64,000 nt of DNA from Patescibacteria group bacterium (lineage in GTDB: Bacteria > Patescibacteriota > Microgenomatia > Levybacterales > GWA1-39-11): assembly GCA_035549295.1 (NCBI GenBank), contig DASZRG010000033.1, forward strand, positions 2,304 through 66,303. Reading direction: 5' to 3'. Position numbers and translations under genes: made by a program. Shown one piece after another: positions 5,680-54,875 of the stretch. Numbering within the stretch: position 1 is the first letter of the stretch; each line of letters starts with the position of its first letter. The notes under the pieces are model-generated. The model worked only from the letters and a program-made list of their open reading frames with translations, searched no databases and was not told the origin of the DNA.

Positions 5680-6852
5680 ATGACAAACGAATCAGAACAA
5701 TTCGTACCTCGAGAAGTAACTGAAGTCAGGAAAAAAGACAAAATTACTGCAGAAAGCCTCCTCTCTGATAATAGATCCGATAAAGCAAGAACAAATATTA
5801 CCATCTGGCACGAAAATGCTGCTGCTGGCCTCCTAATTGAATCTGACACATGCGGCGATGCAAGGCAAGAGGTGCCAGATTTAACACGGGCTGTCATCGT
5901 GCAAAGTATTGGCACCGCCGGATCAAAAGAAGAATATCGTGGTCTTATAAATCACAGGTCAATTAAAGCTGCTGTAAATGTCGCCCATTTTGCAGGAAAT
6001 ACTGTTAGACCCGGAGTTGCACCAACTGGCTGCGGTGGGCTTGCCGCAAAAGAAGAAATGGTTGCCAAAGGACAACAAGGCAGCAGAGAAGGTATCGGTC
6101 ATTATGTTGAAAATGATATATATCACTCAGATGTCATTGTCCAAACATGTGTTTCGGCAATTCAAATGGCCGATATGACGGACAAACCTGTACTTGCCGC
6201 AGCTCAAGATCATCTTACTGGAATAATTTTACCTCTGATTGCTTTCTGGACGAAGGGCAATACCAGATATAGCATTCACAACAGATCACTAACCATGGAT
6301 GACATTCTCAGACCTGAGAAATATAGTCCTTCAAAAATCTATCGAGATGGACTTCCAATTATAGATGAGGAAGATTTGCCAGAAGTTTTCCATGAATATT
6401 TAATGGCAAACACAATTGAGACTCGCGACCTCCATGTTAAATATCCTGATTTTCGCGAGAGGCAAACCACACAAAATCCATCAACTGTTTTGTTATCAAC
6501 TGATATAAGACCCCCTCGACTTAGGCTACCTGAAAGTTTTGACGAGCCTGGCTCTGTTTTCAGACTTAGCTTACCAAGGAGAAAGTTTGCCAATGGGACT
6601 GACATTTCCGTGGAGATACCTGAAAAAGACCTTGTGAGTGTCGTAAACCAAACACAATACCCAATAGAGCACTTCAGCAATGTAGAAAATCTAATTATTG
6701 AAACCAGAGATTTTCAGGTTTCACTGGATCTCATGGGCCATTTTATGGCAAAGCCATGGATGAAAGACTGGCGAGAAAAAGGTGGGAAACAAGTAATTTT
6801 AGTTGAAACACAGGGAGGACGAATAAATAGAATTGCCGACGTTAAACTCTAA
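5680..6852 (+). CDS. hypothetical protein (390 aa) with a degenerate beta-CA-like N-terminal region
   Basis: Long ORF divergent from 5181..5585. It has CGDAR, then VIVQSIGTAG, then PTGCGG with the spacing of beta-CA motifs, but the His is replaced. The 3' end overlaps the dprA stop by 11 nt. Confidence 0.45.
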   Translation: MTNESEQFVPREVTEVRKKDKITAESLLSDNRSDKARTNITIWHENAAAGLLIESDTCGDARQEVPDLTRAVIVQSIGTAGSKEEYRGLINHRSIKAAVNVAHFAGNTVRPGVAPTGCGGLAAKEEMVAKGQQGSREGIGHYVENDIYHSDVIVQTCVSAIQMADMTDKPVLAAAQDHLTGIILPLIAFWTKGNTRYSIHNRSLTMDDILRPEKYSPSKIYRDGLPIIDEEDLPEVFHEYLMANTIETRDLHVKYPDFRERQTTQNPSTVLLSTDIRPPRLRLPESFDEPGSVFRLSLPRRKFANGTDISVEIPEKDLVSVVNQTQYPIEHFSNVENLIIETRDFQVSLDLMGHFMAKPWMKDWREKGGKQVILVETQGGRINRIADVKL

Positions 6853-8008
6853 ATTTACCTTCAGAACTTTTCAGTATTCCAGAAAGCTCCATTTTTGATA
6901 GCATTACGGAAAGTTTTGTATTTGGAATTTTGGTCTCGCGGGAAATCTCATCAATTGTCTTTTCCTCATCCTGAACACAATAAAAAATTTTCCGCTCATC
7001 TGCGTTCAGAGATTGCTTTGTCGCTTCGCTCCTCGCAATGACATAAATACCTGATTCGTGATTCTTGATTCTTAATTCGCTTAATATGTCGTCTACTGAA
7101 CTAACCAAAATCGCTCCTTGTTTTAATAATTTTAAACTTCCTTGACTCATTTGAGATGTAATCGGACCTGGTACTGCAAAAACTGTTTTGCCTTGTTTTA
7201 TTGCGAACTCGGCAGTAATAAGTGAACCACTCCCCTCTGCTGCTTCCGTGATAAGAACCGATGAACTTAGACCTGAAACAATTCGGTTGCGAGCTGGAAA
7301 CGAACCAACTGTTGCTGGCATACCTAGCGGATATTCTGAAATAATTAAGCCATTTTTATCGAGAATATTTTCATAAAGCTTTTCGTTTTCTCGAGGATAA
7401 GGACAATCAACTCCACATCCAAGAACAGCGATTGTTGAACCATTTGCATCAAGCGTCGCTTGATGAGCAACTCCATCTACTCCAAGCGCCATACCAGAGA
7501 CGATAATAAAACCATATGAGACGAGCTGTGAGACTAATGTTTCAGTAACTTGCCTACCGTAAGAAGTAATCTTGCGCGCACCGACGACGGCGATGACGGA
7601 AGAATTTGCCTGATCCTGGTCAAGCCAGGATGACAAATTCTGTCGAGATTCTGAAACAAGTTCAGAATGACAGGATAAAAGTAGTTCTTTGTTTCCTTTT
7701 ACGTAAAGGCCGATCGGTGGTGAATCGAGCTTCCTCAGACTTTCTGGATAATATTTATCTCCATAAGGGATAAAAGTCACTCGTGCTTTATTGAGCATTC
7801 CAAGATAATTTTGTATATCGAATGACTTCTTAAACTCGGCAAACTTTGCAAAATTACTTTTACCAATTCCCACCTCTTTATATTTTGCAAGAGTATCATT
7901 TTCCCATGCGTCGCGTGCTGTCCCAAACTTTTTCAATAGCTTTTGGAATCCCTTTGGACCAACACCAACCGAATTTGAAAAGGCAAGAATGAAATCTCTC
8001 TCAATCAT
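6842..8008 (-). CDS. dprA: DNA processing protein DprA (Smf)
   Basis: N-terminal SAM-like GVGPKGFQKLLKKFGTARDAW. Rossmann core VIAVVGARKITSYGRQ...IVSGMALGVDGVAHQATL...SFPARNRIVSGLS. C-terminal winged helix. Two short repeat elements are embedded in frame; see findings. Confidence 0.85.
   Translation of the reverse strand: MIERDFILAFSNSVGVGPKGFQKLLKKFGTARDAWENDTLAKYKEVGIGKSNFAKFAEFKKSFDIQNYLGMLNKARVTFIPYGDKYYPESLRKLDSPPIGLYVKGNKELLLSCHSELVSESRQNLSSWLDQDQANSSVIAVVGARKITSYGRQVTETLVSQLVSYGFIIVSGMALGVDGVAHQATLDANGSTIAVLGCGVDCPYPRENEKLYENILDKNGLIISEYPLGMPATVGSFPARNRIVSGLSSSVLITEAAEGSGSLITAEFAIKQGKTVFAVPGPITSQMSQGSLKLLKQGAILVSSVDDILSELRIKNHESGIYVIARSEATKQSLNADERKIFYCVQDEEKTIDEISRETKIPNTKLSVMLSKMELSGILKSSEGKFRV
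7018..7054. repeat. 37-bp repeat agagattgctttgtcgcttcgctcctcgcaatgacat inside the dprA CDS
   Basis: 36 of 37 nt identical to the intergenic copy at 11085..11121. Confidence 0.8.
7645..7671. repeat. palindromic hairpin repeat gagattctgaaacaagttcagaatgac inside the dprA CDS
   Basis: 26 of 27 nt identical to 8066..8092. Same family as 16378..16406, 33301..33360 and 39848..39907. Confidence 0.8.
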
Positions 8009-8065
8009 TTGCTTAAGAATATCACATTCTTGTCGTCCTGAGACTCGCTTCAGGACCTCATCGTT

Positions 8066-8092
8066 GAGATTCTGAAACTAGTTCAGAATGAC
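8066..8092. repeat. palindromic hairpin repeat gagattctgaaactagttcagaatgac in the dprA 5' region
   Basis: Stem attctgaaac/gttcagaat. Copy of 7645..7671. Confidence 0.8.
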
Positions 8093-8120
8093 GTCGTATT
8101 GGGTGTGGTAAAATTGATGT

Positions 8121-8939
8121 ATGAAAGTTAGGTTTCTTCATCTTAATATTTTTCAGGGGAAATATTTTACAAGAATAGTAAAGTTTATAAAGGAAAATGA
8201 CATAGATTTGCTTCATCTGCAGGAAGTGACAGGCGGAAAACTAAGCAAAGGCGGCGGATTCTCGTATGAGCATGTGCCTGAAGCAAACGAAATGATAATC
8301 GCCCAGGATACTGTAGGAATTGATAATCTCAAAAGGCTAAAAGAAGAATTTCCCTATGACTTTCGATTTGCAAAAACGTCAGGCTTTGTTGGGGACCCTA
8401 CAGCATATTACGGCAATGGAACTTTCTTCAGACCTGAGTTTAAATTGCTTGATGAAAAGATCATAGTATTACATCCGGAGAATGAAGAGACTCCTGAATT
8501 TAACAAATGGGAAGAATCAGGAAGATCAGCACTTTTTCTAAAATTTGAAATAGAAAATAAAACTTTTTGGAGCATCAATACTCATCTTGCATGGGGTAAC
8601 AATCCATACGATGCAGATTACAAAACCAAACAGGCACAACTTATCATCGACGAGATTGAAAAGCTAAAAGAACCATTTATCTTGAGTGGAGACTTTAATA
8701 TGGTTGCCGAGACTCAGGTTGTTGCAATGTTTGAAAAGTATGGGACCAACTGGACAAAAAAAGAAGGTATTACAAATACATTAAATGGGCATGTTCACGG
8801 TATAAAAAAACTATTTCCGCCGGGTCTTGCTGTCGACTATGTCTTCACCTCACCTGAAGTAAACGTAAAATCATATAGGCTAGTTGATGAAATTGACCTC
8901 TCTGACCACTATGGAATGCTTCTGGAGTTAGAGGTCTAG
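8121..8939 (+). CDS. endonuclease/exonuclease/phosphatase (EEP) family protein
   Basis: LLHLQEV, then SINTHLAWGN, then SGDFNM, then LSDHYGM. This is the typical EEP motif order. Confidence 0.7.
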   Translation: MKVRFLHLNIFQGKYFTRIVKFIKENDIDLLHLQEVTGGKLSKGGGFSYEHVPEANEMIIAQDTVGIDNLKRLKEEFPYDFRFAKTSGFVGDPTAYYGNGTFFRPEFKLLDEKIIVLHPENEETPEFNKWEESGRSALFLKFEIENKTFWSINTHLAWGNNPYDADYKTKQAQLIIDEIEKLKEPFILSGDFNMVAETQVVAMFEKYGTNWTKKEGITNTLNGHVHGIKKLFPPGLAVDYVFTSPEVNVKSYRLVDEIDLSDHYGMLLELEV

Positions 8940-8940
8940 A

Positions 8941-9327
8941 CTAACCTCTTGTCTTTTGGAATTCTTCTCTTAACTCGATGTCGATGTCATATGCGCGACG
9001 GTTTGCCTCTTCAATTTGTTCAGGTGTAAATTTAGCCTCCTCAGTCAGATCATTTTCAGCTCTCACAGCATTATTTGCCGTGAAATATGCGAAATTTGCG
9101 AGCATAACATCCCCAGCTTTTTTGTTCTCGGGTGTAAGTCCACGCGTATGAAGCCCCGTCCATGCATCGAAAACCATTGCTTTACCAGCTTCGAACCCGC
9201 CCTCTACTTTGGTTGCAGCAACACCAATATCAGCATATTTTATATTCAGAGGCGTTTTCAAGGGATGGAGATTTCGCTGATCTATAGTTCTCTGTGAAAC
9301 TGGTAAGTCTGCCGATGGTTCTGGCAT
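8941..9327 (-). CDS. hypothetical protein (128 aa)
   Basis: ORF with good coding appearance. No family recognised. Confidence 0.4.
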   Translation of the reverse strand: MPEPSADLPVSQRTIDQRNLHPLKTPLNIKYADIGVAATKVEGGFEAGKAMVFDAWTGLHTRGLTPENKKAGDVMLANFAYFTANNAVRAENDLTEEAKFTPEQIEEANRRAYDIDIELREEFQKTRG

Positions 9328-9368
9328 GATTATGTTATAGCATAGGTTTTAAAATTTTAATACTACTT

Positions 9369-10010
9369 TTAACCTCCGTCTTCAATTTTTGATTCAACAT
9401 CTCGTTTTAAATCTACCGAATGATACGGGTTGTCACCAACACCAAAGTAAAACCGCCCGTAAGCTCCATGACCTATATGACTTGGAGTTCCATACGATCC
9501 TCCGGATCGATTCGTTGAAGTACTACTTTGTCCAGGAATATTCTGAGTCTTAGGTTGACCATCCGGATAAAATTCTTCTATAAAAGGGCGTGCAAGATCA
9601 ACAAATAACGCATGGTCTCTTATCAAAATCGAATTCATAGTATAATGAGGAGCATAAGTAGCTCCCGGACCCTGAGAATAACTAGCATGAGCAACAGGAA
9701 CTTTTCCTTTTAGCCTTTCTTTTAGCACTGATAAAGGCCTGCGACTGATATTTGTTCTTATATCAAATCCTTCTAAAACTGCTTTTCCTATACTCATAAA
9801 TCTCGGGTCTTTTCCCCTCATGAGCTTCTGGAGAATATACCCATTTGTCAATTTGGAATCAAAAAATGCCTGTAGCTTACTGTAATTTCTCTCGGCATCA
9901 ACAAACCCTACAAAATCATCAAAAGTATTTAAACCATCTAAAAAACTTAAATCTAATTCGGCCTCATCGGGGACGCCCTGTCCAATTTGATATTCAAAAC
10001 TCATCTTCAA
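9369..10010 (-). CDS. hypothetical protein (213 aa)
   Basis: ORF only. Confidence 0.45.
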   Translation of the reverse strand: MKMSFEYQIGQGVPDEAELDLSFLDGLNTFDDFVGFVDAERNYSKLQAFFDSKLTNGYILQKLMRGKDPRFMSIGKAVLEGFDIRTNISRRPLSVLKERLKGKVPVAHASYSQGPGATYAPHYTMNSILIRDHALFVDLARPFIEEFYPDGQPKTQNIPGQSSTSTNRSGGSYGTPSHIGHGAYGRFYFGVGDNPYHSVDLKRDVESKIEDGG

Positions 10011-10079
10011 ATTATAGCAAAATTGTAAAAATATATACTATGGGTTGCAAAAATGTCGTAATTATAGTTTAATACTCCG

Positions 10080-10838
10080 ATGGCAGGAGAAAGATACCAA
10101 GGCGGATATGAAAGCCGAGGTTTTAAGCTTACAAAAACAGAAGTAGATTTGTTTAGAACGCTGACAACGATGGATAGTCAAAGCAAGCTCCATGAAGCGC
10201 ACGGGATAACTTATGACAGCGCGGAACACCATATTAAAAGAGCTGCTGGAAGAAATAGACTAAATCCAAATGTAAAAAATTCTACTACCCAAGGCGCCGA
10301 AGTCAGAATCGTTGTTAATCTAATACGCGATGAGCAGATAGTATTAAAAAATCTTCCAGAGCAACTCGACTTCACAGATGATGAAACTACAGTGGTTGCC
10401 AGTTTACTTGAGGGATTTGACAGAAATGAAACCGCGGAACTAACTGGCTTCTCACTTCGTAAAGTGAGACACATTCTAGAAAGTATTTATGTAAAAACTG
10501 GATCAACAGGACGCGGTAAACGTGGAAATGTTCATGCAGCAGCCGTTATCACCGCTTGCGATGTCCGAGACATGCAAAGAAGGAGAAGGCCATACCAATC
10601 GGATACTCCAAAAGCTCGCCGAATGCCTTTCGTTTCAAGTTCTGTAAGAACTGTAAATCAAGTGCTCACCGAGAAAGCTATAGCTGAAGTTCCCGATATG
10701 GATTATCAAAAAGTTGAGGAGGCATGGTGGATATATGCCGCCAAACACAAAGAACAATTTATGGAAGCAATGCGCGAATATCCTACAGAATTGGCAGCGA
10801 ATGTCGACAAGCTTGTTGACAGTCTAGATTCGGAATGA
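10080..10838 (+). CDS. hypothetical protein with a LuxR/sigma-70 region-4-like HTH
   Basis: ETTVVASLLEGFDRNETAELTGFSLRKVRHILESIYVKTG resembles a LuxR-type HTH. Confidence 0.4.
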   Translation: MAGERYQGGYESRGFKLTKTEVDLFRTLTTMDSQSKLHEAHGITYDSAEHHIKRAAGRNRLNPNVKNSTTQGAEVRIVVNLIRDEQIVLKNLPEQLDFTDDETTVVASLLEGFDRNETAELTGFSLRKVRHILESIYVKTGSTGRGKRGNVHAAAVITACDVRDMQRRRRPYQSDTPKARRMPFVSSSVRTVNQVLTEKAIAEVPDMDYQKVEEAWWIYAAKHKEQFMEAMREYPTELAANVDKLVDSLDSE

Positions 10839-10855
10839 GAAAATTTGGATGAGCA

Positions 10856-10921
10856 CCTAACCTCACCCCAACCCTCTCCTGCTAGGAGAGGGAGATCAAG
10901 GTTTTAGGTTATTACTAAAAA
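10856..10921. repeat. composite repeat A: C-rich box, hairpin ccctctcc-tgcta-ggagaggg, then atcaaggttttag
   Basis: Related copies at 27790..27897 and 31775..31826. Confidence 0.7.
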
Positions 10922-10923
10922 CT

Positions 10924-11085
10924 ATGAATATTCCGCAGATACTTGAAACTCTAACTGATCTTATACTTCATTTCTCGTTTGAGAAGGCAAAAGATCAATC
11001 AAAGCTTGTAGCAGTTGTATTTGCTCTTGTCGCACTGGTGGTAATCTTCTTCGGATTCGTCTTTTCATTAATACCACAATTCTAA
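10924..11085 (+). CDS. small membrane protein (53 aa)
   Basis: ATG..TAA ORF, below the length cut-off of the provided track, with one C-terminal TM helix (LVAVVFALVALVVIFFGFVF). The 11085 repeat starts at its stop codon. Confidence 0.3.
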   Translation: MNIPQILETLTDLILHFSFEKAKDQSKLVAVVFALVALVVIFFGFVFSLIPQF

Positions 11086-11121
11086 GAGATTGCTTCGTCG
11101 CTTCGCTCCTCGCAATGACAT
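11085..11121. repeat. 37-bp repeat agagattgcttcgtcgcttcgctcctcgcaatgacat (intergenic copy)
   Basis: Matches 7018..7054 inside dprA. Confidence 0.8.
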
Positions 11122-11216
11122 TATAGTGATTAAGATTAAAAGAATTAGTGATTAGTCAATTCTCATTGGCGGGTTAACGAGTTGACTTTGGTTACAGAAA
11201 ACTGAATACTGAGATT

Positions 11217-11909
11217 GTGGGAGAAAATAAAATCGCGAGTAAAAGTTTTTATAATAGACTTCCAAAGTCTTTGACTACCGTAACGGGCTTTTCTAAATTT
11301 ATTGCACTTTGTCTTTTTATCCTCCTACCCTTCGCAGGATTTATGATAGGCGCGAGATATCAGGCAAAAATTGACTCAACTCTAATCAGTCAGACAACAC
11401 GTCAAACCTCAACCAGCAATAATTCAACGACTAGTAAATTACCAGATACGCAAAACTGGAAAACATATACAAATGCAAAATTTGGATTTTCGATAAAATA
11501 CCCTGCCGGTATTCCCGTCTACGTACCAGATACCCCAGTAATGCCGGACAATATTACAATACCACTGCCACAGCAAATCGCAACCGATGATACCTCAGAA
11601 AAAAATCTATTAATTATTATAAGAAAGTCAGATATGACTGCTGATCAAAACGTCCAAGAAAGAATCCATCAAGATAATCTATATAATACATCAGGAGGAA
11701 AATCTAATAGCAAAGTTTTAACTTTAGTAGGAAATAAATTCCAAATATTTATGCAAGATTTTCCAAGTTTAAAAGTTATAAAATTGGAATATTTTATTGA
11801 TAGAAATGGATATCTATATCAATTCAATATCAATACATCTTATCAAAACGAATCGCAAGTTGAAGATCTTGTAAATCAAATTCTTTCAACCTTCAAATTC
11901 ACAAAATAA
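11217..11909 (+). CDS. membrane-anchored protein with one PsbP-like module (cassette gene 1)
   Basis: GTG start. N-terminal TM helix. Module starts NWKTYTNAKFGFSIKYP and the protein ends ILSTFKFTK-stop. Confidence 0.6.
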   Translation: MGENKIASKSFYNRLPKSLTTVTGFSKFIALCLFILLPFAGFMIGARYQAKIDSTLISQTTRQTSTSNNSTTSKLPDTQNWKTYTNAKFGFSIKYPAGIPVYVPDTPVMPDNITIPLPQQIATDDTSEKNLLIIIRKSDMTADQNVQERIHQDNLYNTSGGKSNSKVLTLVGNKFQIFMQDFPSLKVIKLEYFIDRNGYLYQFNINTSYQNESQVEDLVNQILSTFKFTK

Positions 11910-11910
11910 T

Positions 11911-13374
11911 ATGGAAGCAAATAAAAATACTCAGACGGATCCTACTTTACCAGCGCAATCTGATCCGTTGCAATCAATTAATCCAGTTGCACCAAATAAA
12001 TACCTAAGAATATTTATCATCTTTTTGTGTTTTTTTGTTGGTATCCCACTTATTCTCATACCTATTATTATTGCAATTTTTGTTGTACCGCAACTAATGA
12101 GTCTATATAGTCATCTAGAAATTCATAATAAACCTAGCTACTTTCTAATTTATTCTGAACTATTTATTGCTGCGGCGCTTGGTGGACTAAATCCATTTTT
12201 TGGGATAAAGCTTATAAAGCACCCGACGAATCTAAAGAAAGCCGCAACTATCGCGATCCTAACCTTTTTCATTCAGGGTGTTGTGTTGGCATTAAGCTTA
12301 ATACCAATTCTTACTCCTATTTATTCACTGGTCAATCAAATCCAGGATGAGCCAACAAAAGAAAATACAAGTGTAAATCAAATAAAACCGCTCAAAACCT
12401 ATACGAATACAGAATACAATTATTCTCTAAGTTATCCTTCCAACTTGAATATTATTCCTCACGATTCCACAGCATCAAATACTTTCTCATTGACGAACAA
12501 ACCCAATCCTAAAAATGATCTGTATCCTGTTGATGAAGACAAAAAATATTTTGAGATTGAGGTGATGGTTAGTCCGGCCGATGGCCAGTCAATCAATGAC
12601 ATAGCAACAAGAATGGATAACTATAAAAATAGATCTGACTATGTAAGAACTCCCTACAAATTAGACGGAATAAATGGATATAAAGGGACAGATATTTCTG
12701 TTGACTCGTATACCATGGGGGTTGAAGTAATTAAAGACAATTACGATTATTTTATTGCTCTTAGAAAGTTTGATGACAAAAATACAGAGGGGATCAATGA
12801 TTTTAATCGAATTCTATCACTATTCAAATTTACAAACTTAACCGATGAACACCTCTGGAAAACTTATTCTAATGATGCATACGGATTCTCACTTCAGTAC
12901 CCGTCTAATTTGAAAATCGATCCTCCCGTATCAAGCGGGACCCTAGTTCCACCTTTTAACGGAAAGAGTCCGGAATTTAATAAAACGTTTATCGATACCG
13001 ATACCTACCACTACACATCGGATGACTTTATTCAAAATATTGATACTGGATATCGCTACAATGGATTCGTAATTTTTATATCCGATAATCCCGACAATGA
13101 AGATTTTTATACTTTTGCCAAAAATAACGCAACATCTATCGCATCTGCGGTTCAACCTTACACGCATAAAACTTACACAATAAATGTTACCAAAACCGAA
13201 ATAGGCGGAAGAGAAGCTTATTATTACAGTGGTTTTGAGCCACTAATATTCAACTTCTATATGGTCAGGCTTACCGATAGCAAATTCTTAATTCTTACGA
13301 ATGTGGAAGAAGCGAACGGACAATTTACTCAACAATTCCAAAAAATTCTCTCAACCATTAAATTTACAAACTAA
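11911..13374 (+). CDS. polytopic membrane protein with two PsbP-like modules (cassette gene 2)
   Basis: Four N-terminal TM helices. Modules begin LKTYTNTEYNYSLSYP and LWKTYSNDAYGFSLQYP. They end ILSLFKFTN (internal) and ILSTIKFTN-stop. Confidence 0.6.
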   Translation: MEANKNTQTDPTLPAQSDPLQSINPVAPNKYLRIFIIFLCFFVGIPLILIPIIIAIFVVPQLMSLYSHLEIHNKPSYFLIYSELFIAAALGGLNPFFGIKLIKHPTNLKKAATIAILTFFIQGVVLALSLIPILTPIYSLVNQIQDEPTKENTSVNQIKPLKTYTNTEYNYSLSYPSNLNIIPHDSTASNTFSLTNKPNPKNDLYPVDEDKKYFEIEVMVSPADGQSINDIATRMDNYKNRSDYVRTPYKLDGINGYKGTDISVDSYTMGVEVIKDNYDYFIALRKFDDKNTEGINDFNRILSLFKFTNLTDEHLWKTYSNDAYGFSLQYPSNLKIDPPVSSGTLVPPFNGKSPEFNKTFIDTDTYHYTSDDFIQNIDTGYRYNGFVIFISDNPDNEDFYTFAKNNATSIASAVQPYTHKTYTINVTKTEIGGREAYYYSGFEPLIFNFYMVRLTDSKFLILTNVEEANGQFTQQFQKILSTIKFTN

Positions 13375-13376
13375 AA

Positions 13377-15104
13377 ATGGACGACAACACACGAAACCCA
13401 GAACAGGACGATCAACCAGTGCAAGTCGCAAGAAAGCAAACAATAAATGACCTGAGATATCAAATCACCCAACTGCCATACATCTGGTACTTAAGTTTCA
13501 CTCTTTATGCGCTATCTCTAGGATCATTTTCTCCGTTTTTTTCCTTAATTTCGATTATTGGAATTGTATGTATATTTCTGTCGTTATTATCGTTTGCCTC
13601 ATTTGTATTTTTTATACCAAGATTTTTTAGAGTTTTTTATCTCTATGCCTTGGAAAACGGCTTCCCAGCCCTAGTCAAAGATATAAGAAGTCTCCAATTT
13701 GATAAACCTCAAAAAATTGCAATGGCTATTGTGTTTGTGTATTTCTTGATAATATTTGTAGTGTTAGTGCTGTTTGTTGCTTCAAATTTATTGCTGAACA
13801 TTACAATTCGACCTTCTATTATTCTCTCTATTGCTCGATTCCCAATATGGATCATCCTGTATTTAGATGCATATCTCCTGTTAAATTACAAAACAAATAT
13901 ACTTAAGAAATTTTCCATCCCTCAAACAACCTTAACTAAATCTATTTTCAACTCACTCGTTGGAATTTTAGTCCTAATACCCTTCTGCCTTACATCGCTA
14001 GTTGTATACTCTGCTTTTTACTCGAGAATTCACCCAGCAAAAGTTGCGTGCACGGCTGAAGCAAAGATTTGCCCTGACGGCACAACCGTTGGTCGTTCTG
14101 GTCCAACTTGCGAATTCACAAAATGCCCACCCCAAAAAACAACCGCAACAAATAACGATGCAGAAACTGCAAGATGGAAAACTTATACAAATACAAAAAT
14201 TGGCTACACAATAAAATATCCTCCTAGTTTCACTGAGCCAAATGTTCCCTGTGCTTCCTTTTGCCTTGCAAATGGCACCGAGGAGAATACTTTAATAAGT
14301 TTTTATGATAAAAACAGTAACGGCTACTCATTAACAGCATTTAAATCAATGAGCACTCTTGAACAGATAGTTAAAGAAAGGCAAACTGCTACAACATTCT
14401 CAGATATTGTTCCTCAATTTTTCCCAGACAAACCAATTAAATCTTTAAAAACAACCACCATAGATGGAATAACCACCTATTGGTATTCAACAGATCACAT
14501 CAATAAAGATGGTTCAAGTGGTGTCGACATTTACTTTTTCCAGAATGGTTACGCATTTATTTTCAGGGCTGGTGAATTTTCAAAAATAAATCAAAAACAA
14601 CTAGACGGAATGCTTTCAACATTCAAGTTCACAAACCAAAATCAAACTAGTGATAATTCAAATTGGAATGATGGGGTTATTGGTAATTTAACTTTTAAAT
14701 ATCCTTCACAATACCATGGAGGTTATGTATGCGGTAACAAGTCTGAATTTTTCATTGATACAGGTCCAATCCCTCAACAATGTCCATATGGCGATGATAC
14801 TCCAGCTTTTAATTTGGGCTTTACAAAAAATGAGACTTTGGCACAGGCAAAAAAAGATTTTCTAAGTAAAACAGGACGCATTGATCAAACAACTAAGGAT
14901 ATTGTGATAGACGGACGCGCGTCACTTGAAACAAAAGAAGTTTGGCCACCAGGACAAGATGTGGTAAATCACAATAATTGGGCTATATATATTGCAGATG
15001 GCCAGGATTTGTATGGTTTTTATTCTTTTGACCTACATATAAAAGCCGCAGACCAAGAAAAATATTTTGATCAAATTGCCTCAACCTTCAAATTCACGAA
15101 ATAA
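13377..15104 (+). CDS. polytopic membrane protein with a Cys-rich linker and two PsbP-like modules (cassette gene 3)
   Basis: Five to six TM helices. Linker CTAEAKICPDGTTVGRSGPTCEFTKCPP. Module 1 runs RWKTYTNTKIGYTIKYP to MLSTFKFTN. Module 2 ends IASTFKFTK-stop. Confidence 0.6.
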   Translation: MDDNTRNPEQDDQPVQVARKQTINDLRYQITQLPYIWYLSFTLYALSLGSFSPFFSLISIIGIVCIFLSLLSFASFVFFIPRFFRVFYLYALENGFPALVKDIRSLQFDKPQKIAMAIVFVYFLIIFVVLVLFVASNLLLNITIRPSIILSIARFPIWIILYLDAYLLLNYKTNILKKFSIPQTTLTKSIFNSLVGILVLIPFCLTSLVVYSAFYSRIHPAKVACTAEAKICPDGTTVGRSGPTCEFTKCPPQKTTATNNDAETARWKTYTNTKIGYTIKYPPSFTEPNVPCASFCLANGTEENTLISFYDKNSNGYSLTAFKSMSTLEQIVKERQTATTFSDIVPQFFPDKPIKSLKTTTIDGITTYWYSTDHINKDGSSGVDIYFFQNGYAFIFRAGEFSKINQKQLDGMLSTFKFTNQNQTSDNSNWNDGVIGNLTFKYPSQYHGGYVCGNKSEFFIDTGPIPQQCPYGDDTPAFNLGFTKNETLAQAKKDFLSKTGRIDQTTKDIVIDGRASLETKEVWPPGQDVVNHNNWAIYIADGQDLYGFYSFDLHIKAADQEKYFDQIASTFKFTK

Positions 15105-15105
15105 T

Positions 15106-16293
15106 ATGGAAGAAAGTAAAGTAGCTGATACAATCGAACCCGCCTTGAGTCCTACTCAAATAAATATTTCCGAAGCTGAAAAAAGAGAAACGAACAATAA
15201 AAAAAAGTTGTTTAAAAAGATCCTATTCGCGATACTTATTATTGTTGTTATTCTAGTAATTCATGCAATAGCGGATTGGCTTGGGGTATATACGCTATTT
15301 CAAAAACCCGAGAACACAGCGCTTCACGATGATATTTCGATGTGGCACAACTCACCTCAAGTGCCGTCATTCGAAACGCCAGCAAACTGGAAAACATATA
15401 CAAGTACTCCCGGGGCATACAAAATATCTTATCCACCTGACTACACAATAAATACTGGCCATTCGATGGGAGTTGATGGCGTCATCACTGTAGAATCTGA
15501 CAGTTACACAGAACTAATTTCAACAACCATACCTACCACAAATGAAAATATGAAAATCAGCATAGATTCGAAGCTAACAGATTACAAAACTATAGACGAT
15601 GTAGCTAGCAGCGACTGTGCCGATGCAAAAAAGGGAAGAGGGGAAGTTTATGAGCGACTCGACGGGGCGCCCTCATTGATATATCGAAATATTAACTGCG
15701 GCCCGCGATCCTCGACCAAAATTTACACCATTAATAGTGGCCGTGCCTATTCAATAACTGTTGAAAGTAATATAGAAGACGAAAAAATACGGCCGATCTA
15801 CAGCGACATACTTTTAACATTTAAATTTGCGCCTAGCAAAACTCTTGATACCTCAGATTGGAAAACATATACAAATGCAGAATTTGGATTCTCATTCAAA
15901 TATCCGAGCAAATTTACAATCAAAGAAGTGAGATATTATGATGCTGAAGGGAACTATAGAAATAAACTATACCCCGATGTTTATTACTTAATTTCGTTTT
16001 ATATAAATGAAGATGGAAAAGAAGGTTATTCAAGCTATACTTTCATCGCACAAGATTATGCTGAAAATACTATTTCGCAAGCATTTAAAGACATAAAAAC
16101 GATTCCAATTACAAAACCAAATGGTGTAGATGAGGCGTCCGCAACTAGTCACCAGCTGGACAGTGGCAACTTTGACACGATCTATAGAATTGGCAATAAA
16201 TACTACTATTTTGAACCTACTATTCAAGACAGTACAAGCCGTGAACACATATGGGATTATCCAATCCTGTCAACAATTAAATTCACAAAATAG
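15106..16293 (+). CDS. membrane-anchored protein with two PsbP-like modules (cassette gene 4)
   Basis: Start chosen at MEESK to mirror the MEANK start of gene 2. The gene junction aaattcacgaaataatatggaag duplicates the gene1/gene2 junction. Modules begin NWKTYTSTPGAYKISYP and DWKTYTNAEFGFSFKYP. The protein ends ILSTIKFTK-stop. Confidence 0.6.
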   Translation: MEESKVADTIEPALSPTQINISEAEKRETNNKKKLFKKILFAILIIVVILVIHAIADWLGVYTLFQKPENTALHDDISMWHNSPQVPSFETPANWKTYTSTPGAYKISYPPDYTINTGHSMGVDGVITVESDSYTELISTTIPTTNENMKISIDSKLTDYKTIDDVASSDCADAKKGRGEVYERLDGAPSLIYRNINCGPRSSTKIYTINSGRAYSITVESNIEDEKIRPIYSDILLTFKFAPSKTLDTSDWKTYTNAEFGFSFKYPSKFTIKEVRYYDAEGNYRNKLYPDVYYLISFYINEDGKEGYSSYTFIAQDYAENTISQAFKDIKTIPITKPNGVDEASATSHQLDSGNFDTIYRIGNKYYYFEPTIQDSTSREHIWDYPILSTIKFTK

Positions 16294-16377
16294 TATTTTT
16301 TAATGATTAGTCGGGAATTGTTAACAGGTATATCTCTATAATTTGCGTCATGCTGAATTTATTTCAGCATCTCGCTT

Positions 16378-16406
16378 TCGAGGTCCTGAAACAAGTTCAG
16401 GACGAC
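16378..16406. repeat. hairpin repeat tcgaggtcctgaaacaagttcaggacgac
   Basis: Stem gtcctgaa/ttcaggac. Adjacent second hairpin gctgaatttatttcagc at 16352..16368. Confidence 0.75.
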
Positions 16407-16415
16407 AATTCGATA

Positions 16416-16447
16416 TCTTGTCAATTGTTAATTGTCAGTGGTCAATT
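16416..16447. repeat. caattgac direct-repeat motif at the PBP2 3' end
   Basis: ttgtcaattgttaattgtcagtggtcaattg. It is the reverse complement of the motif at 20987..21019. Confidence 0.6.
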
Positions 16448-18214
16448 GTTTTTCTTCGTGAAGTAATCAGTGAGGATTTGCTTTGCTATGGGTCCTGCGA
16501 TAGATGATCCTTCTCCTCCATTTTCGACCAGAACTGTAACGGCAATTTCCGGATGGTTAAATGGCGCAAAGACTGTGATCCATGCATCGGGCGCTTTATC
16601 AGGAGAAGTCTCAGCAGTTCCAGTCTTACATGCAACTTTTACATGCACCATGTTGGCTCCGGCCGATGCATCCTGCGTATAGTCAATATTGTCGATTTTA
16701 AGCTTGGGATTTTTTACTTTAAAATCAAAAAGGGGCCATGCAACTCCGCCAGTATCGCATGCTTCAAGCATTCCTTGTCGAACCAAATTTATATTACCAG
16801 GCTTTATGAACCCTGTCTTTATAGCTTTTGTTTGGTCGGCCAAAAGATGCGGCTGCCAGAGAGTCCCACCATTGGCAAAAACTTCTGTAAATGAATTCAC
16901 CTGAAGAGGTGTCGCAAGAATATATCCCTGTCCGATTCCATAATTGTAGGTATCTCCCAAATACCATTGCTCCCCGATATTTTTCTCTTTCCATTCTATA
17001 GTCGGGATTGTTCCTTCTGCTTCCGATGGCAAATCTATATTTAACTTTGACCCCATTCCAAACGTCCTTGCCCATGAGGAAATATAATCAACACCTGTTT
17101 TTTCAGCAGTCTTGTAAAAGAAAATATCATTTGAGCGCTTGATAGCACCTACTATATTTAGGTTTCCCTCCGTCCTGCCATATTGCAAATAATACCAATT
17201 ACCAAATGAGAAGGTCCCGACTTTCAAAATACCTGTATCTTCTATCTCTGTGTTTTCGTCAATCGAACCTTTCTCAAGTGCTGCCGTTGCTGCGACTAGT
17301 TTAAAAGTCGACCCTGGGGGATACGCCCCACCTGTGGCACGATCAAGAAGCGGCAGACCCTGCGAGTCACTCAGAACGCTCTGAACATCTTTGTATTGTC
17401 CCTCAGGTTTGTAGCTTGCCGGATGCGTAAAAAGATTTGGGTCAAATGAAGGAGCTGAGAAAAGCGCTAAAATTCCACCATTGCGAGGATCGGAAACAAC
17501 TACGGCACCGTGCTCAACCCCCTTCATAGCGGACTCGACAGACAAACCGATATCACCATCAAGCGTTGTATTTAGATTGTATCCGGGAGTTGGTGGATCC
17601 TCACCAAGTTGCCTAACGAGAACTCCACGCGAATCAACTTCATACAAAAACTTTCCATCAACCCCATGAAGATATTTTTCATATTCTTTTTCAAGTCCTG
17701 ATTTACCAACAAAATCATAAGACGAATAATCGTCAAATTCTGGAAGATTTATTTCGTCCGGTGATATTTGACCAATGTATCCAACAACATGCGCAAAAGC
17801 ACCTGCTTCACGATAGTCACGTAGTACATCGTTCTGGACAGGTTTGCCATCAGATATCATACGAAGCGCTTCGTCTTTTGAAAGAAGTCGTACTTTCCCG
17901 TTTTCAATTATTTTAAATGAGGGACTATTTGATACAAGCGGCTTACCATTTCTGTCAAAAATTATTCCGCGGGGAGCCGATATAGATAGTGTTCTGGTCC
18001 TATTTTGGTCTGACAAAGTTTTGTAGTAATCCCCTCTTAAAATTTGCAGATAGAAAAGTCGAGCAAGAATAATTCCAAAGAAAAGAAAAAGGAAAAATAG
18101 TGGCGCAAGCACAAGCACTTCATCAGAAATAAGATTACTTCGCGATCTAGATCTTGAGATCCTTTCACCTTTTACACTGTCAAAAAAAGCTGGACCAACC
18201 TTTATTTTAGGCAT
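16442..18214 (-). CDS. mrdA: penicillin-binding protein 2 (peptidoglycan D,D-transpeptidase)
   Basis: N-terminal TM helix. SxxK (GSTFKLV), SxN (RSNDIFF) and KTG (KTGTAE) are in the right order. Located immediately downstream of mreCD. Confidence 0.85.
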   Translation of the reverse strand: MPKIKVGPAFFDSVKGERISRSRSRSNLISDEVLVLAPLFFLFLFFGIILARLFYLQILRGDYYKTLSDQNRTRTLSISAPRGIIFDRNGKPLVSNSPSFKIIENGKVRLLSKDEALRMISDGKPVQNDVLRDYREAGAFAHVVGYIGQISPDEINLPEFDDYSSYDFVGKSGLEKEYEKYLHGVDGKFLYEVDSRGVLVRQLGEDPPTPGYNLNTTLDGDIGLSVESAMKGVEHGAVVVSDPRNGGILALFSAPSFDPNLFTHPASYKPEGQYKDVQSVLSDSQGLPLLDRATGGAYPPGSTFKLVAATAALEKGSIDENTEIEDTGILKVGTFSFGNWYYLQYGRTEGNLNIVGAIKRSNDIFFYKTAEKTGVDYISSWARTFGMGSKLNIDLPSEAEGTIPTIEWKEKNIGEQWYLGDTYNYGIGQGYILATPLQVNSFTEVFANGGTLWQPHLLADQTKAIKTGFIKPGNINLVRQGMLEACDTGGVAWPLFDFKVKNPKLKIDNIDYTQDASAGANMVHVKVACKTGTAETSPDKAPDAWITVFAPFNHPEIAVTVLVENGGEGSSIAGPIAKQILTDYFTKKNN

Positions 18215-18283
18215 TGCTATATTTAAAAAATTTCAAATTTATAATATCAAATATCCAATTTCAAATAATTCAAACGTATTTTT

Positions 18284-18694
18284 TTAGAATAGGAATTTGG
18301 ACTTTGAGAAGTAAGAAAATGTCACACCTGCAAGCGCAAAAATTAATAAGTAAATTATCAAGTTGGTGGTATAGCCTGAAATTAATGCGTAAAGATATGT
18401 TAGAACGAAAATCATAAGCAAGACTATTTTATATTCTTTAATTTCAAACAAACGACGAGCTGAATAAATAGATATAAAAGAAATAGATAATAGCAGTGGT
18501 GTTAAACCAACATTTGATGCTTTGATGGCATCAAGCAAAAATGCTAGAAACATAAGAATTATAATAGTCGCGGTCTCGGGTAAAAATAAATAAGTTATTA
18601 TTGAAAAAATAAAAAAGATTGGAAGAGATGTCAAAACACTATCAAAAAAAAGCGAAGTGAAAACTAAAAGAAACAACAAATATCTGGAATTCAT
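18284..18694 (-). CDS. mreD: rod shape-determining protein MreD (start trimmed to MNSRY)
   Basis: Small polytopic membrane protein between mreC and PBP2. The ATG overlaps the mreC stop in an ATGA arrangement. The longest ORF (to 18835) would overlap mreC by 140 nt. Confidence 0.5.
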   Translation of the reverse strand: MNSRYLLFLLVFTSLFFDSVLTSLPIFFIFSIITYLFLPETATIIILMFLAFLLDAIKASNVGLTPLLLSISFISIYSARRLFEIKEYKIVLLMIFVLTYLYALISGYTTNLIIYLLIFALAGVTFSYFSKSKFLF

Positions 18695-18695
18695 C

Positions 18696-19481
18696 TTAAA
18701 ACTTTTCAACCACAAAGACAGTTTCGAGGCGACTAAAATCAATAGTCGTTTCGATTTTGGCTGTTTGAAATGGGAGACTCGGACTTTTGTTAACTGACAC
18801 AATCTTGCCAATAACAAGCTCTGGTGGAATACCAATCCCAGAACTTCCCACGTCTCCCGCTGTCAAAAGAAACGTATTGTTGTTAATCGTGTCGTTGATG
18901 GAGACACGATCCAGCAAAATAAAATCCTGATCGCCATGAGCAACACCTGGCGCACCTGTGTCTGATGCTTTGGCAAGTGTTACAAAATCTGGATTGATAG
19001 TCAGAATAACCTCAGAAAAGACAGGCGTAACTTTGCCAAGTTTTCCGATCAAATTATTCCCCTCAACAACCGCCATTCCCGTCTTCATCCCTAGATCTGA
19101 ACCATGATCTATCGTAAGCGTAATTGGTTGAAAAAAAGAACCGGTAAAACCAATAACTTTGACCGGTGAAAGTGTGTAAGATTTAGTTTCAGTAGTATCA
19201 AATTGTGAGCGAAAGGCGTCGTTATCGCGCTTAATACGATCGTAATCTAAGAGTTTTTGGGTGAGCTCCAAATTTTCTTTTTTGAGCTTTTCGGCTGGAC
19301 TTCCTTTCCCTGTTAGCTCGTTGTCATCGGATCGCATACCATAAATAATAGACTTTGGAACTTTGAACGTATTTTGGGCTATTGCGGCAAGCGCGCTGAA
19401 AGGCCAAGAATTATTGTTAAGTAAAATAAGAAGTGATAAAGTAAGAAAAATAAAAAGTACAGCGAGTTGTATTTTTTTCAT
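18696..19481 (-). CDS. mreC: rod shape-determining protein MreC (start at MKKIQ)
   Basis: N-terminal TM helix, coiled-coil region (ELTQKLLDYDRIKRDNDAFRSQ), then beta-rich C-terminus. Followed by mreD and PBP2. Confidence 0.65.
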   Translation of the reverse strand: MKKIQLAVLFIFLTLSLLILLNNNSWPFSALAAIAQNTFKVPKSIIYGMRSDDNELTGKGSPAEKLKKENLELTQKLLDYDRIKRDNDAFRSQFDTTETKSYTLSPVKVIGFTGSFFQPITLTIDHGSDLGMKTGMAVVEGNNLIGKLGKVTPVFSEVILTINPDFVTLAKASDTGAPGVAHGDQDFILLDRVSINDTINNNTFLLTAGDVGSSGIGIPPELVIGKIVSVNKSPSLPFQTAKIETTIDFSRLETVFVVEKF

Positions 19482-19588
19482 CCATAATATTCTAGCGCTG
19501 TGAGGCGAGAAATACAAACGTGCATGCGAATTTTATACTAATTTAACTAGTGCGAATTTATACTAATTAGTTGGTTTTAATTATTTAA

Positions 19589-20974
19589 ATGATAAAAAGA
19601 CGGAAGAAATTAACTGGGCGTAAATCATCTGCTATAATCTCTCGCACGATGTTGCAAGAGTTGGCGTTAAAAGAGGCTGTTCGAAATAATGAAAAAAGTA
19701 AGGGCCCCCACACCTCACCCAATCCAGAACATTACCCCAATGGCTATCTGTGGGACTCAAACTTTGCCGCAATAGTCTATGCAGAACTTGGTGAGCCAGA
19801 CCGCGGTGCGCAAGAAGTTGAAACCGTTCTTTCATGGCAAAATAAAAAAAGTGGTTTTATACCAAATATGAAACTCGGATACGGTCGCAATCTAGATATT
19901 GAAAAATATACGTTCACCAATCCAGGACATGAAAGCAATTACTCACAGCCTCCATTTCATGCAAGAGCCGCTATGACAGTGTATAAATCGTATGTTGAAA
20001 GTGGACAAAAAACTAAAGGTGAAAGATTTTTAAAAGATAATTATGAGTCACTCGCTCTGGCATATAAATATTTTATTGACGGGCGGCAAAACTCTGAAAG
20101 CGACCCTTTGATAGGAATTATTCATCCACATGAGACAGGCCGCGACTCAGACCCTACTTTTGACTTTATTAAAAAACGCTTGCCGACAATGCCTGGCAAG
20201 ACTCCAAAAGTAATAAGTCTTGCAAATACGGTCTTTGACTATGGAAGCGCTCTCAAACTAAATGTTGACCTCATGAAAGTTAATTGGAATATAAAGCGTA
20301 TTCGCGAAGAAGGAATTTTTTGGGTCAATGATGTCATGTTCAATGTAGCTTATGCTGAAAACCTAAGGTATATGAGTGAAATCGCCGAGATTGTAGGGAA
20401 TAAAGGTGGCGTAGAATTCTTTGGTCAAAAAGCAGATGATGTTGCGCAAAAGATAATTGGCGAAATGTGGGACGAAAAAAATCAAATGTTTTATGCAACA
20501 GATATAGATGGTGCGCCAATCAAGAAAATTTCGATTTCAAACATAACGCCCATTATGCTTCCTGGTATAAAAAATGAACAACTCTCAAGGATTTTGGATC
20601 TCTTAGATAACAAGGACTGGTTCAATACACCATATCCCATACCATCTGTTCCAGCTAAAAGTCCTAACTTTGACCCACACTATGATGAGAAAAGACTCTG
20701 GCGCGGACCGGTCTGGATGAATACCAACTGGATGATAGTCGAAGCACTTTTTATGCAGGCTGAGAAACCGGGTGTCAAAGGAACAAAACTTGCGGAAAGA
20801 TGTATGAATCGAGCATTTGAAATATGCGAAAAGTCTATAGAGCTTGCAAAAGAACACGGATTCTGGGAATTTTATGATGCAATAAATGGTCAGGGACTTC
20901 GTATCAATCACTTTACCTGGTCAACCCTGGCGGGAGTTATTGAAAAACGATATTTGGAGAAGAAAACCGCCTGA
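19589..20974 (+). CDS. six-hairpin (alpha/alpha)6 glycoside hydrolase, GH63/GH15-like
   Basis: WRGPVWMNTNWM and the C-terminal GFWEFYDAINGQG are typical of six-hairpin glycosidases, which include mannosylglycerate/glucosylglycerate hydrolases. The exact family is not resolved. Confidence 0.5.
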   Translation: MIKRRKKLTGRKSSAIISRTMLQELALKEAVRNNEKSKGPHTSPNPEHYPNGYLWDSNFAAIVYAELGEPDRGAQEVETVLSWQNKKSGFIPNMKLGYGRNLDIEKYTFTNPGHESNYSQPPFHARAAMTVYKSYVESGQKTKGERFLKDNYESLALAYKYFIDGRQNSESDPLIGIIHPHETGRDSDPTFDFIKKRLPTMPGKTPKVISLANTVFDYGSALKLNVDLMKVNWNIKRIREEGIFWVNDVMFNVAYAENLRYMSEIAEIVGNKGGVEFFGQKADDVAQKIIGEMWDEKNQMFYATDIDGAPIKKISISNITPIMLPGIKNEQLSRILDLLDNKDWFNTPYPIPSVPAKSPNFDPHYDEKRLWRGPVWMNTNWMIVEALFMQAEKPGVKGTKLAERCMNRAFEICEKSIELAKEHGFWEFYDAINGQGLRINHFTWSTLAGVIEKRYLEKKTA

Positions 20975-21111: not shown

Positions 21112-21149
21112 GTGATACCCGTGGTACCCATGATACCCTTATGATGACT
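21112..21149. repeat. GTGATACCC-type tandem repeat
   Basis: gtgataccc-gtggtaccc-atgataccc-ttatgatgac. Related arrays at 27722..27763 and 33391..33426. Confidence 0.6.
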
Positions 21150-21879
21150 TGGGTTTGGCGAAGACTAATGTACGTTTCCAGTCCGTGCCAGGCGGCCAGC
21201 AGGTTTGAAGTATCACGCGTTCTCCTTTTCCAAGCGCAGGGTCAATATATGAGACGTCCGAACTATCGACAAGCTTTGTGTCGTAGACAGTATAGTCATA
21301 TCGTTTACCTTTGAAAAATAGATATACATCATCTCCTGGCACCATATCTTTAAGAAGATAAAAAACAGCATTGTAACGCCCTATATCCCAAAAATTGTCT
21401 GCAGAATGGGCAAAAAGATATGTAGTACCGTTCACTCCAGGATATGCTGTGCCCTTGGCATGTGCAATACTGTGAAGCAGCACTCTCAAGTATTCTTCTT
21501 TGTTGGATGGATCAACATTGGCCGTAATTGCCTCAGCCGCACCGATCTTTGGGACAACTATGGAGAAGTCTGTATTTGGCGGAATTAGGATCTTTTCAGT
21601 ATTGTTGGCCACGATATCCGATAGACTTGGACCGTTTTGTGAAAGCGAAGTGTTTCTGTACTTGTCTGCAAGTCGTCCAAGAGCTGTCTCCTGAGGCACA
21701 ACTGGCTTGTTAACCTCTGGCGCAAGGACATACTTTACGCCCCTAACTTTCGACAACTGATATGAGGCTTCGTAATATGCAGATGGCCCAAATGTCGCGA
21801 ATAAACCAAAAATTGAGAAAAGAATAAGAAAATTACTGATGGTCCGAAGTATAAGAAAATTGATAAATTCTCGTCTCAC
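21139..21879 (-). CDS. sortase family transpeptidase
   Basis: N-terminal TM helix. Catalytic His in TTYLFAHS. TLxTC-type Cys motif ILQTCWP. Downstream Arg. GTG start. Confidence 0.7.
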   Translation of the reverse strand: MRREFINFLILRTISNFLILFSIFGLFATFGPSAYYEASYQLSKVRGVKYVLAPEVNKPVVPQETALGRLADKYRNTSLSQNGPSLSDIVANNTEKILIPPNTDFSIVVPKIGAAEAITANVDPSNKEEYLRVLLHSIAHAKGTAYPGVNGTTYLFAHSADNFWDIGRYNAVFYLLKDMVPGDDVYLFFKGKRYDYTVYDTKLVDSSDVSYIDPALGKGERVILQTCWPPGTDWKRTLVFAKPKSS

Positions 21880-54847: not shown

Positions 54848-54875
54848 GACTTCCAACTAGCGATAATATATAATT

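Follow-up and report, generated by a model that had tools for sequence, protein, structure and literature searches.

A tandem array of divergent PsbP-like proteins with N-terminal membrane anchors in a member of the Patescibacteria

The window analysed here is the whole of a 64,000-nucleotide (nt) stretch of contig DASZRG010000033.1 (assembly GCA_035549295.1), which derives from a bacterium of the Patescibacteria, also termed the Candidate Phyla Radiation (CPR). Between positions 11217 and 16293 the window contains a tandem array of four genes, each of which encodes a hydrophobic N-terminal anchor followed by one or two copies of a module related to the photosynthetic protein PsbP. The array was picked out in an earlier reading made from the letters of the DNA alone (the sequence-only reading), which described four co-directional genes for membrane-anchored proteins of an episymbiont-type cell. 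All four open reading frames (ORFs) are indeed present across this span and their N-terminal anchors can be seen, and the contig, like all relatives of the array proteins, comes from Patescibacteria. Successive genes are separated by stop-to-start gaps of 1, 2 and 1 nt, and the array therefore forms one tightly coupled operon. Its features are as follows, with positions counted from the first letter of the window.

11217-11909, + strand: gene 1, 230 amino acids, with a signal-anchor helix at residues 24-58 (about nt 11286-11390) and an S/T/N-rich disordered linker
11454-11906, + strand: the single PsbP-like module of gene 1
11895-11917, + strand: junction 23-mer AAATTCACAAAATAATATGGAAG, which covers the end of the gene 1 closing motif, TAA, a 1-nt spacer and the ATG of gene 2
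11911-13374, + strand: gene 2, 487 amino acids, with a polytopic N-terminal membrane region at nt 11911-12387
12388-12837 and 12853-13371, + strand: the two PsbP-like modules of gene 2
13377-15104, + strand: gene 3, 575 amino acids, with a polytopic N-terminal region of 5-6 helices at 13377-14048
14049-14129, + strand: four-Cys linker of gene 3, CTAEAKICPDGTTVGRSGPTCEFTKCP
14172-14636 and 14661-15101, + strand: the two modules of gene 3, the second with the degenerate opening motif NWNDGVIGNLTFKYP
15090-15112, + strand: the junction 23-mer again, as an exact match, where gene 3 meets gene 4
15106-16293, + strand: gene 4, 395 amino acids from the ATG at 15106 (the longest ORF begins at the TTG at 15067)
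about 15199-15297, + strand: single transmembrane (TM) helix of gene 4 (residues 32-64), followed by a linker
15385-15834 and 15856-16290, + strand: the two modules of gene 4

Motif scans and alignment resolve seven modules in the array (1 + 2 + 2 + 2), of 145-173 amino acids each. Two modules apiece had been assigned to genes 2, 3 and 4, and a stop codon had been placed directly after the closing motif of each gene; both descriptions are accurate for the genes concerned. The total of 9-10 modules proposed for the window was too high, with eight being certain (the seven of the array and one at 55523-56233) and a ninth, at 56270-57076, doubtful. A profile hidden Markov model (HMM) built from homologues (alignment A1, of which gene 1 is the first row) matches the products of genes 2-4 at E-values of 8e-29 to 1.5e-34, far beyond chance. 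The public call for gene 1 (P0001, 188 amino acids) begins at Met43, which lies within the TM helix. Homologues of gene 1 keep the segment 'LPKSLTTVTxFSK..LF.LLPFAGF' upstream of this residue, so the GTG at 11217, which yields the protein of 230 amino acids, is the better start. Among the nearest relatives of gene 1, this N-terminal anchor sequence is a recurrent and well-conserved motif.

The modules can be placed in a family that has already been catalogued. The Pfam family PsbP_2 (PF18933) matches all four proteins, with E-values from 0.066 to 7e-6, and is the top match for genes 2-4. The scores are 26.6 bits for gene 2, 22.0 for gene 4, 15.8 for gene 3 and 13.6 for gene 1, against a gathering threshold of 27, and the match to gene 2 spans positions 8-184 of the 184 in the PsbP_2 profile. 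A search with gene 1 returned 101 relatives. Wherever their organism is given it belongs to the Patescibacteria; 'PsbP-related protein' is already the name of some of these relatives, and a precomputed PF18933 assignment accompanies many. Gene 1 was aligned with 52 single-module homologues, of which 34 reach PsbP_2 at E<1e-3. When the profile made from these 52 sequences was compared with the sequences of the PDB, the three best matches were all members of the PsbP family, collinear and weak (E 0.13-0.46). A profile of this depth was needed before PsbP appeared, as one made from eight module sequences of the window alone found nothing except noise among the PDB sequences. A scan against NCBIfam yielded nothing useful, the equivalog model PSII_PsbP (NF040946) scoring 14.5 bits against a cutoff of 60 and covering the C-terminal 33 residues only. 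The possibility that these are photosystem II PsbP proteins proper was rejected: NF040946 falls below its cutoff, the contig and all relatives come from metagenome-assembled genomes (MAGs) of Patescibacteria, and there are no photosystem genes among the annotated ORFs of the window.

Structure prediction agrees with this placement. The AlphaFold model of gene 1, computed from the 52-sequence alignment, has a mean predicted local distance difference test score (pLDDT) of 73 and contains a TM helix (residues 24-58), a disordered linker and a domain at residues 80-230. The domain consists of a beta-hairpin, a helix, four long strands, a C-terminal helix (212-224) and a short final strand (227-228). 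Module 1 of the gene 4 model has a pLDDT of about 85-93, and this model returns the same list of structural matches as that of gene 1. The modelled fold is an alpha-beta-alpha sandwich with a central antiparallel sheet, superposable on PsbP, CyanoP and Mog1. The PsbP/Mog1 fold that had been suspected from the opening motif is thus borne out by the AlphaFold models and their structural matches.

The family is both large and widely distributed. An exhaustive HMMER search of 1.84 billion representative sequences recovered at least 6,881 clusters (50% identity) that reach E<=1e-3. In many of them 2-6 stretches match the profile, and the window proteins form clusters of their own. A pattern scan of one genome per species matched at least 599 stretches; the matches listed, from which a set of 78 related loci was taken, come mostly from Microgenomates lineages, Parcubacteria, Saccharibacteria, WWE3 and Doudnabacteria. 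Co-directional tandem arrays are common, with at least two family ORFs in 30 of 76 loci (three in seven loci, four in one and ten in another). The largest array, at 7388-19907 of locus L037 in a MAG titled 'bacterium isolate WY5.bin133', has its ten co-directional family ORFs within 12.5 kb. The four array proteins are ordinary, divergent members of this catalogued and very large CPR family. Neither phage GenBank records (tblastn) nor IMG/VR contained relatives, and the family is therefore not phage-borne. A literature search on PsbP-like proteins or PF18933 in Patescibacteria or CPR bacteria found no paper on the family. Typical members are also found in MAGs titled 'uncultured Gammaproteobacteria', 'Pseudomonadales', 'Nevskiaceae', 'Methylomirabilota' and 'Limnocylindrales'; such oddly titled bins (loci L011, L014, L025, L026, L031, L045, L056, L062, L076, L030, L038 and L042) are probably mislabelled or contaminated.

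Each module is bounded by two short motifs, here termed the opener and the closer. The opener is canonical, [WL]KTY[TS]N..[FY]..YP, in six of the seven array modules, whilst the closer, [IM][LA][SL][TL][FI]KF[TA][KNP], is found in all seven (as FKFAP in module 1 of gene 4). The sequence-only reading had every module share both motifs, which is true of the closer; the opener is degenerate in module 2 of gene 3. In the HMMER alignments the opener, YtNtkygFsiKYPadw, lies against YSDTKDGYEFLYPNGW of CyanoP sll1418, YVDANDGYSYLYPADW of PnsL1 and YVDSYDGYEFLYPRGW of CyanoP 2xb3, and the closer, klfnQILSTF, lies against DQFKTIVSSF of CyanoP, ending at residue 162 of the 165 in the crystallised chain. 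The same collinear signature is therefore present in both groups, with an N-terminal hairpin G[YF]xFxYPxxW and a C-terminal ..SxF near the chain end, at the weak E-values quoted above (0.13-0.46). The likeness of the opener to the start of PsbP proved well founded, the profile alignment equating it with the canonical N-terminal hairpin motif of PsbP, and both terminal motifs are inherited PsbP signatures.

The models also assign the closer a place in the fold. It forms the end of the C-terminal helix and the last short strand (pLDDT 83-87 over the last 20 residues), and the closer at the end of module 1 in gene 4, which is internal, is modelled in this conformation too. In 235 family proteins, 399 closers were counted, and 213 of these (53%) are internal. 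A new opener follows 172 of the 213 internal closers, at a median distance of 9 residues from motif to opener, and 186 of the 235 proteins end within 4 residues of a closer. The closer marks a domain boundary. Opener and closer together make up the conserved core by which the domain is delimited, which explains why all modules, and with them most genes, finish at the closer; proteins terminate at this motif because the PsbP-like domain usually comes last.

The four proteins differ in the regions that precede the modules. Hydropathy analysis gives one helix each to genes 1 and 4, as had been described, whereas the four to six helices that had been assigned to each of genes 2 and 3 become 3-5 for gene 2 and 5-6 for gene 3. 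Nearly all of the 235 family proteins have a single TM helix, unlike genes 2 and 3. Residues 1-225 of gene 3 have no homologue at E<=1e-3, and the polytopic regions of genes 2 and 3 have no match in the 78 related loci, with the exception of the Cys linker; these N-terminal regions are the one mildly unusual aspect of the locus. The four-Cys linker that had been noted in gene 3 is present and has no Pfam match. Near-identical Cys linkers occupy the same position, between anchor and first module, in P0007, P0015 and P0025, and some ORFs in the related loci end in ...NCEFAACP. The linker is presumably disulfide-bonded, and the window encodes both DsbB (22630-23172) and a DsbA-like protein (23172-23942). 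The modelled N-terminal TM helices, the Cys linker of gene 3 and the DsbB/DsbA-like genes together suggest that the modules lie outside the membrane.

Attachment as a lipoprotein was considered and rejected: no lipobox of the form [LVI][ASTVI][GAS]C is present, the IALC of gene 1 and the IFLC of gene 2 having the wrong residue at position -1. The anchor of gene 4 contains no Cys at all. As no lipobox is present, anchoring would be by an uncleaved helix, and AlphaFold2 models a long uncleaved N-terminal helix. The mycobacterial proteins Apa and MTC28, which share the fold, are O-mannosylated glycoproteins, and by analogy with them the S/T-rich linkers of the array proteins might be glycosylated.

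The sequence-only reading had seen in the locus a rapidly duplicating array of cassettes, on the grounds that the junction sequence between genes 1 and 2 recurs between genes 3 and 4. The repeat itself is real, with an exact 23-mer at 11895 and at 15090 (two exact occurrences against none expected in shuffles) and a likeness between the copies that extends over 51 nt at 88% identity. The modules are at odds with rapid duplication: they are pairwise just 18-31% identical (60-76% in DNA outside the motifs), a range of amino-acid identity at which synonymous sites are saturated. In BLAST comparisons with their siblings and with 92 modules of other genomes, every window module finds its best match in another genome and none has a window sibling among its best matches, and the paralogues are therefore old. 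Much of the identity at the junction follows from an identical peptide, Q-I-x-S-T-F-K-F-T-K-stop followed by M-E, encoded in an AT-rich genome. What is left over is a small excess, of about 8 nt beyond the ATG. Had a unit of two genes been duplicated (1+2 to 3+4), gene 1 would pair with module 2 of gene 3. These two modules share only 22% identity, and genes 2 and 4 have nothing in common at their N-termini after Met-Glu, so either such a duplication was ancient or the 51-nt patch reflects a short gene conversion or a codon-level constraint. The excess identity could have survived from an ancient doubling of two genes, stem from a short tract of conversion or result from a translational-coupling constraint; it is not evidence of rapid turnover.

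Comparison with related genomes gives a measure of the rate of change. The slot from DprA to PBP2-MreD-MreC (6842-18214 in the window) is syntenic in loci L013, L008, L053, L007 and L034. In the syntenic relatives this slot always contains one or two PsbP-like genes, compared with four here. Between the window and these Levybacteria-type relatives PBP2 is 50-59% and DprA 43-48% identical, whereas the PsbP-like ectodomains are at most about 30% identical or are undetectable. To judge from these identities, the ectodomains evolve much faster than the flanking genes. Three ORFs of the window (8941-10838) have no Pfam match and no counterpart in the syntenic loci.

The array is probably an operon of four divergent paralogues from the PsbP_2 (PF18933) branch of the Mog1/PsbP superfamily, whose products would be Sec-inserted, membrane-tethered and non-enzymatic binding modules of the cell envelope. 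We infer the topology, the Sec route and the binding function along the following lines. Insertion would be via the general Sec/YidC route, and the uncleaved N-terminal anchor, a single helix in genes 1 and 4 and polytopic in genes 2 and 3, would retain each protein in the cytoplasmic membrane. A flexible S/T/P/N-rich linker, held by disulfide bonds in the case of gene 3, would present each protein's one or two alpha-beta-alpha sandwich domains at the outer surface of the membrane. Within each domain the opener WKTYTN..GF.FKYP supplies the N-terminal beta-hairpin and the closer QILSTFKFT[KN] the end of the C-terminal helix and the last short strand, and the poorly conserved middle (about 20% identity) would carry specificity. 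The modules may then act as non-enzymatic binders or scaffolds for envelope proteins, lipids or glycans. To our knowledge all characterised members of the superfamily (PsbP/CyanoP, PnsL, Mog1, DcrB, LpqN, Apa/MTC28, Tsi3/TplEi and the Eag chaperones) are non-enzymatic binders of proteins or lipids, which is why a binding or scaffolding role in the envelope would be expected.

Several observations weigh against this reading. No window protein strictly attains the Pfam gathering score, the best (gene 2) falling 0.4 bit short; the models reach moderate confidence, at a mean pLDDT of 71-73, and module 2 of gene 4 is poorly modelled; and the topology is deduced from hydropathy alone. There is no conserved operon partner, the neighbours across the 78 loci being unrelated housekeeping genes: the commonest neighbour family occurs in at most 10 of the 78, and those that recur are DnaK, PBP1A, TopA, DprA, sugar kinases, GAPDH and ABC transporters. 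In addition, the terminal motifs are nearly invariant across phylum-level distances, which exceeds the obvious need of a purely structural role. This invariance is in part a matter of ascertainment, as two of the searches were seeded on exact words or on QILSTF[KR]F; the conserved termini persist, as variants, in 34 ORFs that lack the seed pattern.

A different role for the termini had been raised in the sequence-only reading, which allowed the FKFTK end to be either the last strand of the fold or a sorting signal. As a sorting signal, FKFT[KN]-stop would be a novel C-terminal tag for sorting or attachment by a dedicated machine, for instance the sortase encoded at 21139-21879. The extreme conservation of the motif, the large share of proteins that end beside it and a sortase gene 5 kb away speak for such a tag. 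Yet more than half of all closers are internal, at boundaries between modules, and the closer is modelled with good confidence as a helix end and strand and aligns with the C-terminal TIVSSF of CyanoP. The motif is confined to the family: a survey of 1.16 Mb from related CPR loci, covering ORFs of at least 100 amino acids, found 68 that end in the motif; the HMM assigns 65 of them to the family, and two of the three exceptions sit within family arrays. Six ORFs of the window have this ending, and all belong to the family, one of them doubtfully. These six stop 2 residues past F-K-F and have no LPXTG-like motif, hydrophobic segment or charged tail, and the proteins already bear anchors at their N-termini. 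A sortase homologue lies within 10 kb in just 6 of the 78 related loci, two of which are close syntenic relatives, and the proposed link to the sortase at 21139-21879 is not supported. The motif is the end of the fold, and its reading as a sorting signal, now extremely improbable, is refuted as far as sequence analysis reaches. Two established classes were rejected as well: a portable sorting tag of the PEP-CTERM or type IX secretion system C-terminal domain kind, the motif being neither strictly C-terminal nor carried by unrelated passengers, and an LPXTG-type sortase substrate, in view of the missing tail and the few loci with a sortase nearby.

Fast-changing ectodomains in many copies could also be expected of a repertoire for host interaction or adhesion, in which variable surface adhesins would bind the host envelope of an episymbiotic CPR cell and additional paralogues would widen the range of specificities. 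The predicted extracytoplasmic position of the modules, their very divergent middles, their faster evolution than the flanking genes and the differing size of the array among relatives (1-2 genes, to 4 here) fit this picture. It is nevertheless unlikely, since a short linker and an anchor would hold the modules a few nanometres from the membrane, probably beneath or within the wall, adhesin-type repeats and any pilus or sortase association are lacking, and the divergence is ancient rather than recent. Tandem, diversified and extracytoplasmic paralogues could also make up a poly-immunity island that neutralises toxins directed at the wall or membrane, in the manner of Tsi3 and TplEi/Tli4, and PsbP/MOG1 is listed as one of the domains fused to immunity proteins in polymorphic-toxin loci (PMC3482391). 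An envelope immunity array is nonetheless a distinctly poor prospect: no toxin, effector or secretion-system gene adjoins the array or recurs near the 78 loci, the scores of CyanoP and PsbP equal or exceed those of the immunity proteins, and a family that is near-universal and highly multicopy in CPR bacteria, with strongly conserved termini, is unlike patchy, mobile immunity genes. The probable reading as membrane-tethered envelope binders can be carried further, into speculation to which we would give a small chance. The family might be the main variable envelope-binding repertoire of the Patescibacteria, with thousands of tethered modules whose near-invariant termini would offer a shared docking surface to a conserved envelope partner whilst their fast-evolving middles would capture host lipids, wall fragments or surface molecules in the manner of LpqN and Apa; the polytopic anchors of genes 2 and 3 would then couple binding to a membrane function. 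If true, this would make the family central to how reduced symbionts scavenge from, or attach to, their hosts.

The surroundings of the array and the remaining PsbP-like genes of the window contain the following features.

16294-16441, no strand assigned: hairpin-rich intergenic region between gene 4 and the convergent PBP2 gene, minimum free energy -39.6 kcal/mol, z -3.7 against shuffles
55523-56233, + strand: further single-module family member with a TM anchor, LQIYTNDRFDYSFQYP ... IFSSLKFAD-stop, homologue HMM E 1.3e-13
56270-57076, + strand: possible very divergent member, not established, LSYRDETLGVNFNYP ... IIFNSLLFIK-stop

On its 3' side the array is flanked by a convergent PBP2 gene and then by MreD and MreC, on the opposite strand; the neighbours in the window comprise DprA, an EEP nuclease, PBP2, MreC/D, a glycoside hydrolase, the sortase and DsbA/B. 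The intergenic region at 16294-16441 contains three or four stem-loops and is a probable terminator zone that closes the operon. At 10839-10925, behind the upstream ORF, there is a perfect 9-bp stem, CCCTCTCC(T)...GGAGAGGG (z -3.2), and the strong hairpins at both flanks of the array are probably terminators. In a promoter scan sites were no more frequent than in shuffles, and the TTGACT-17-AATACT site found at 11182-11210, just 5' of gene 1, is not evidence of a promoter. A second small cluster lies at 53597-57076 and contains a PMT_2-family glycosyltransferase (53597-54847), a DUF-like membrane protein (54876-55469), the PsbP-like gene at 55523-56233, the product of which forms a separate 50% cluster (P0105), and the possible divergent gene at 56270-57076. 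The product of this last ORF resembles the family at its termini only, with an hhalign probability of 1.6% and no Pfam match.

The locus contains no new sorting system and no new kind of element, and the "FKFTK terminus" need no longer be considered as a signal. What is gained is annotation: the four array genes, together with one or two others of the window, can now be described as encoding membrane-anchored PsbP_2-like envelope proteins, and the database start of gene 1 should be moved upstream. Few extracytoplasmic families of the Patescibacteria are as expanded as the PsbP-fold ectodomains, with their thousands of clusters and arrays of up to ten genes. This expansion, like the fast evolution, is a property of the whole family and not of this locus, and it would be reasonable to study the family in the handful of CPR systems that are open to genetics.

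The closest known system is PsbP_2 itself (PF18933, 'PsbP-like protein', or 'PsbP-related protein' in NCBI), which occurs in Patescibacteria and other bacteria and with which the window modules share both the domain and its boundaries. The window proteins fall just below the curated cutoff (at most 26.6 against 27 bits), and genes 2 and 3 have polytopic N-termini whereas relatives in this family are nearly all single-helix proteins. CyanoP, PsbP and PnsL1 (PPL2), the lumenal extrinsic proteins of photosystem II and NDH, are more distant, at just 9-16% identity. The window proteins are held by a TM helix rather than by a lipid or a cleaved transit peptide, their modules are in tandem within the protein and their genes in tandem arrays, and the host is a non-photosynthetic CPR bacterium. 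Envelope proteins that share the fold with no detectable sequence similarity include LpqN and Apa/MTC28 of Mycobacterium and the enterobacterial DcrB. These are either lipoproteins (LpqN, DcrB) or secreted (Apa, MTC28), whereas the window proteins are without a lipobox and keep their TM anchor; the mycobacterial and enterobacterial proteins are also single-domain and have not been expanded into large paralogue families. A further protein, BT_1490 (PDB 3hlz), is from Bacteroides thetaiotaomicron, a member of another phylum, and has no detected sequence relationship to the array. The periplasmic immunity proteins of the type VI secretion system kind, Tsi3 and TplEi/Tli4, are set apart by adjacent effector or secretion genes, which do not accompany the array, and it is with PsbP_2, in domain and in boundaries, that the proteins of this locus agree.

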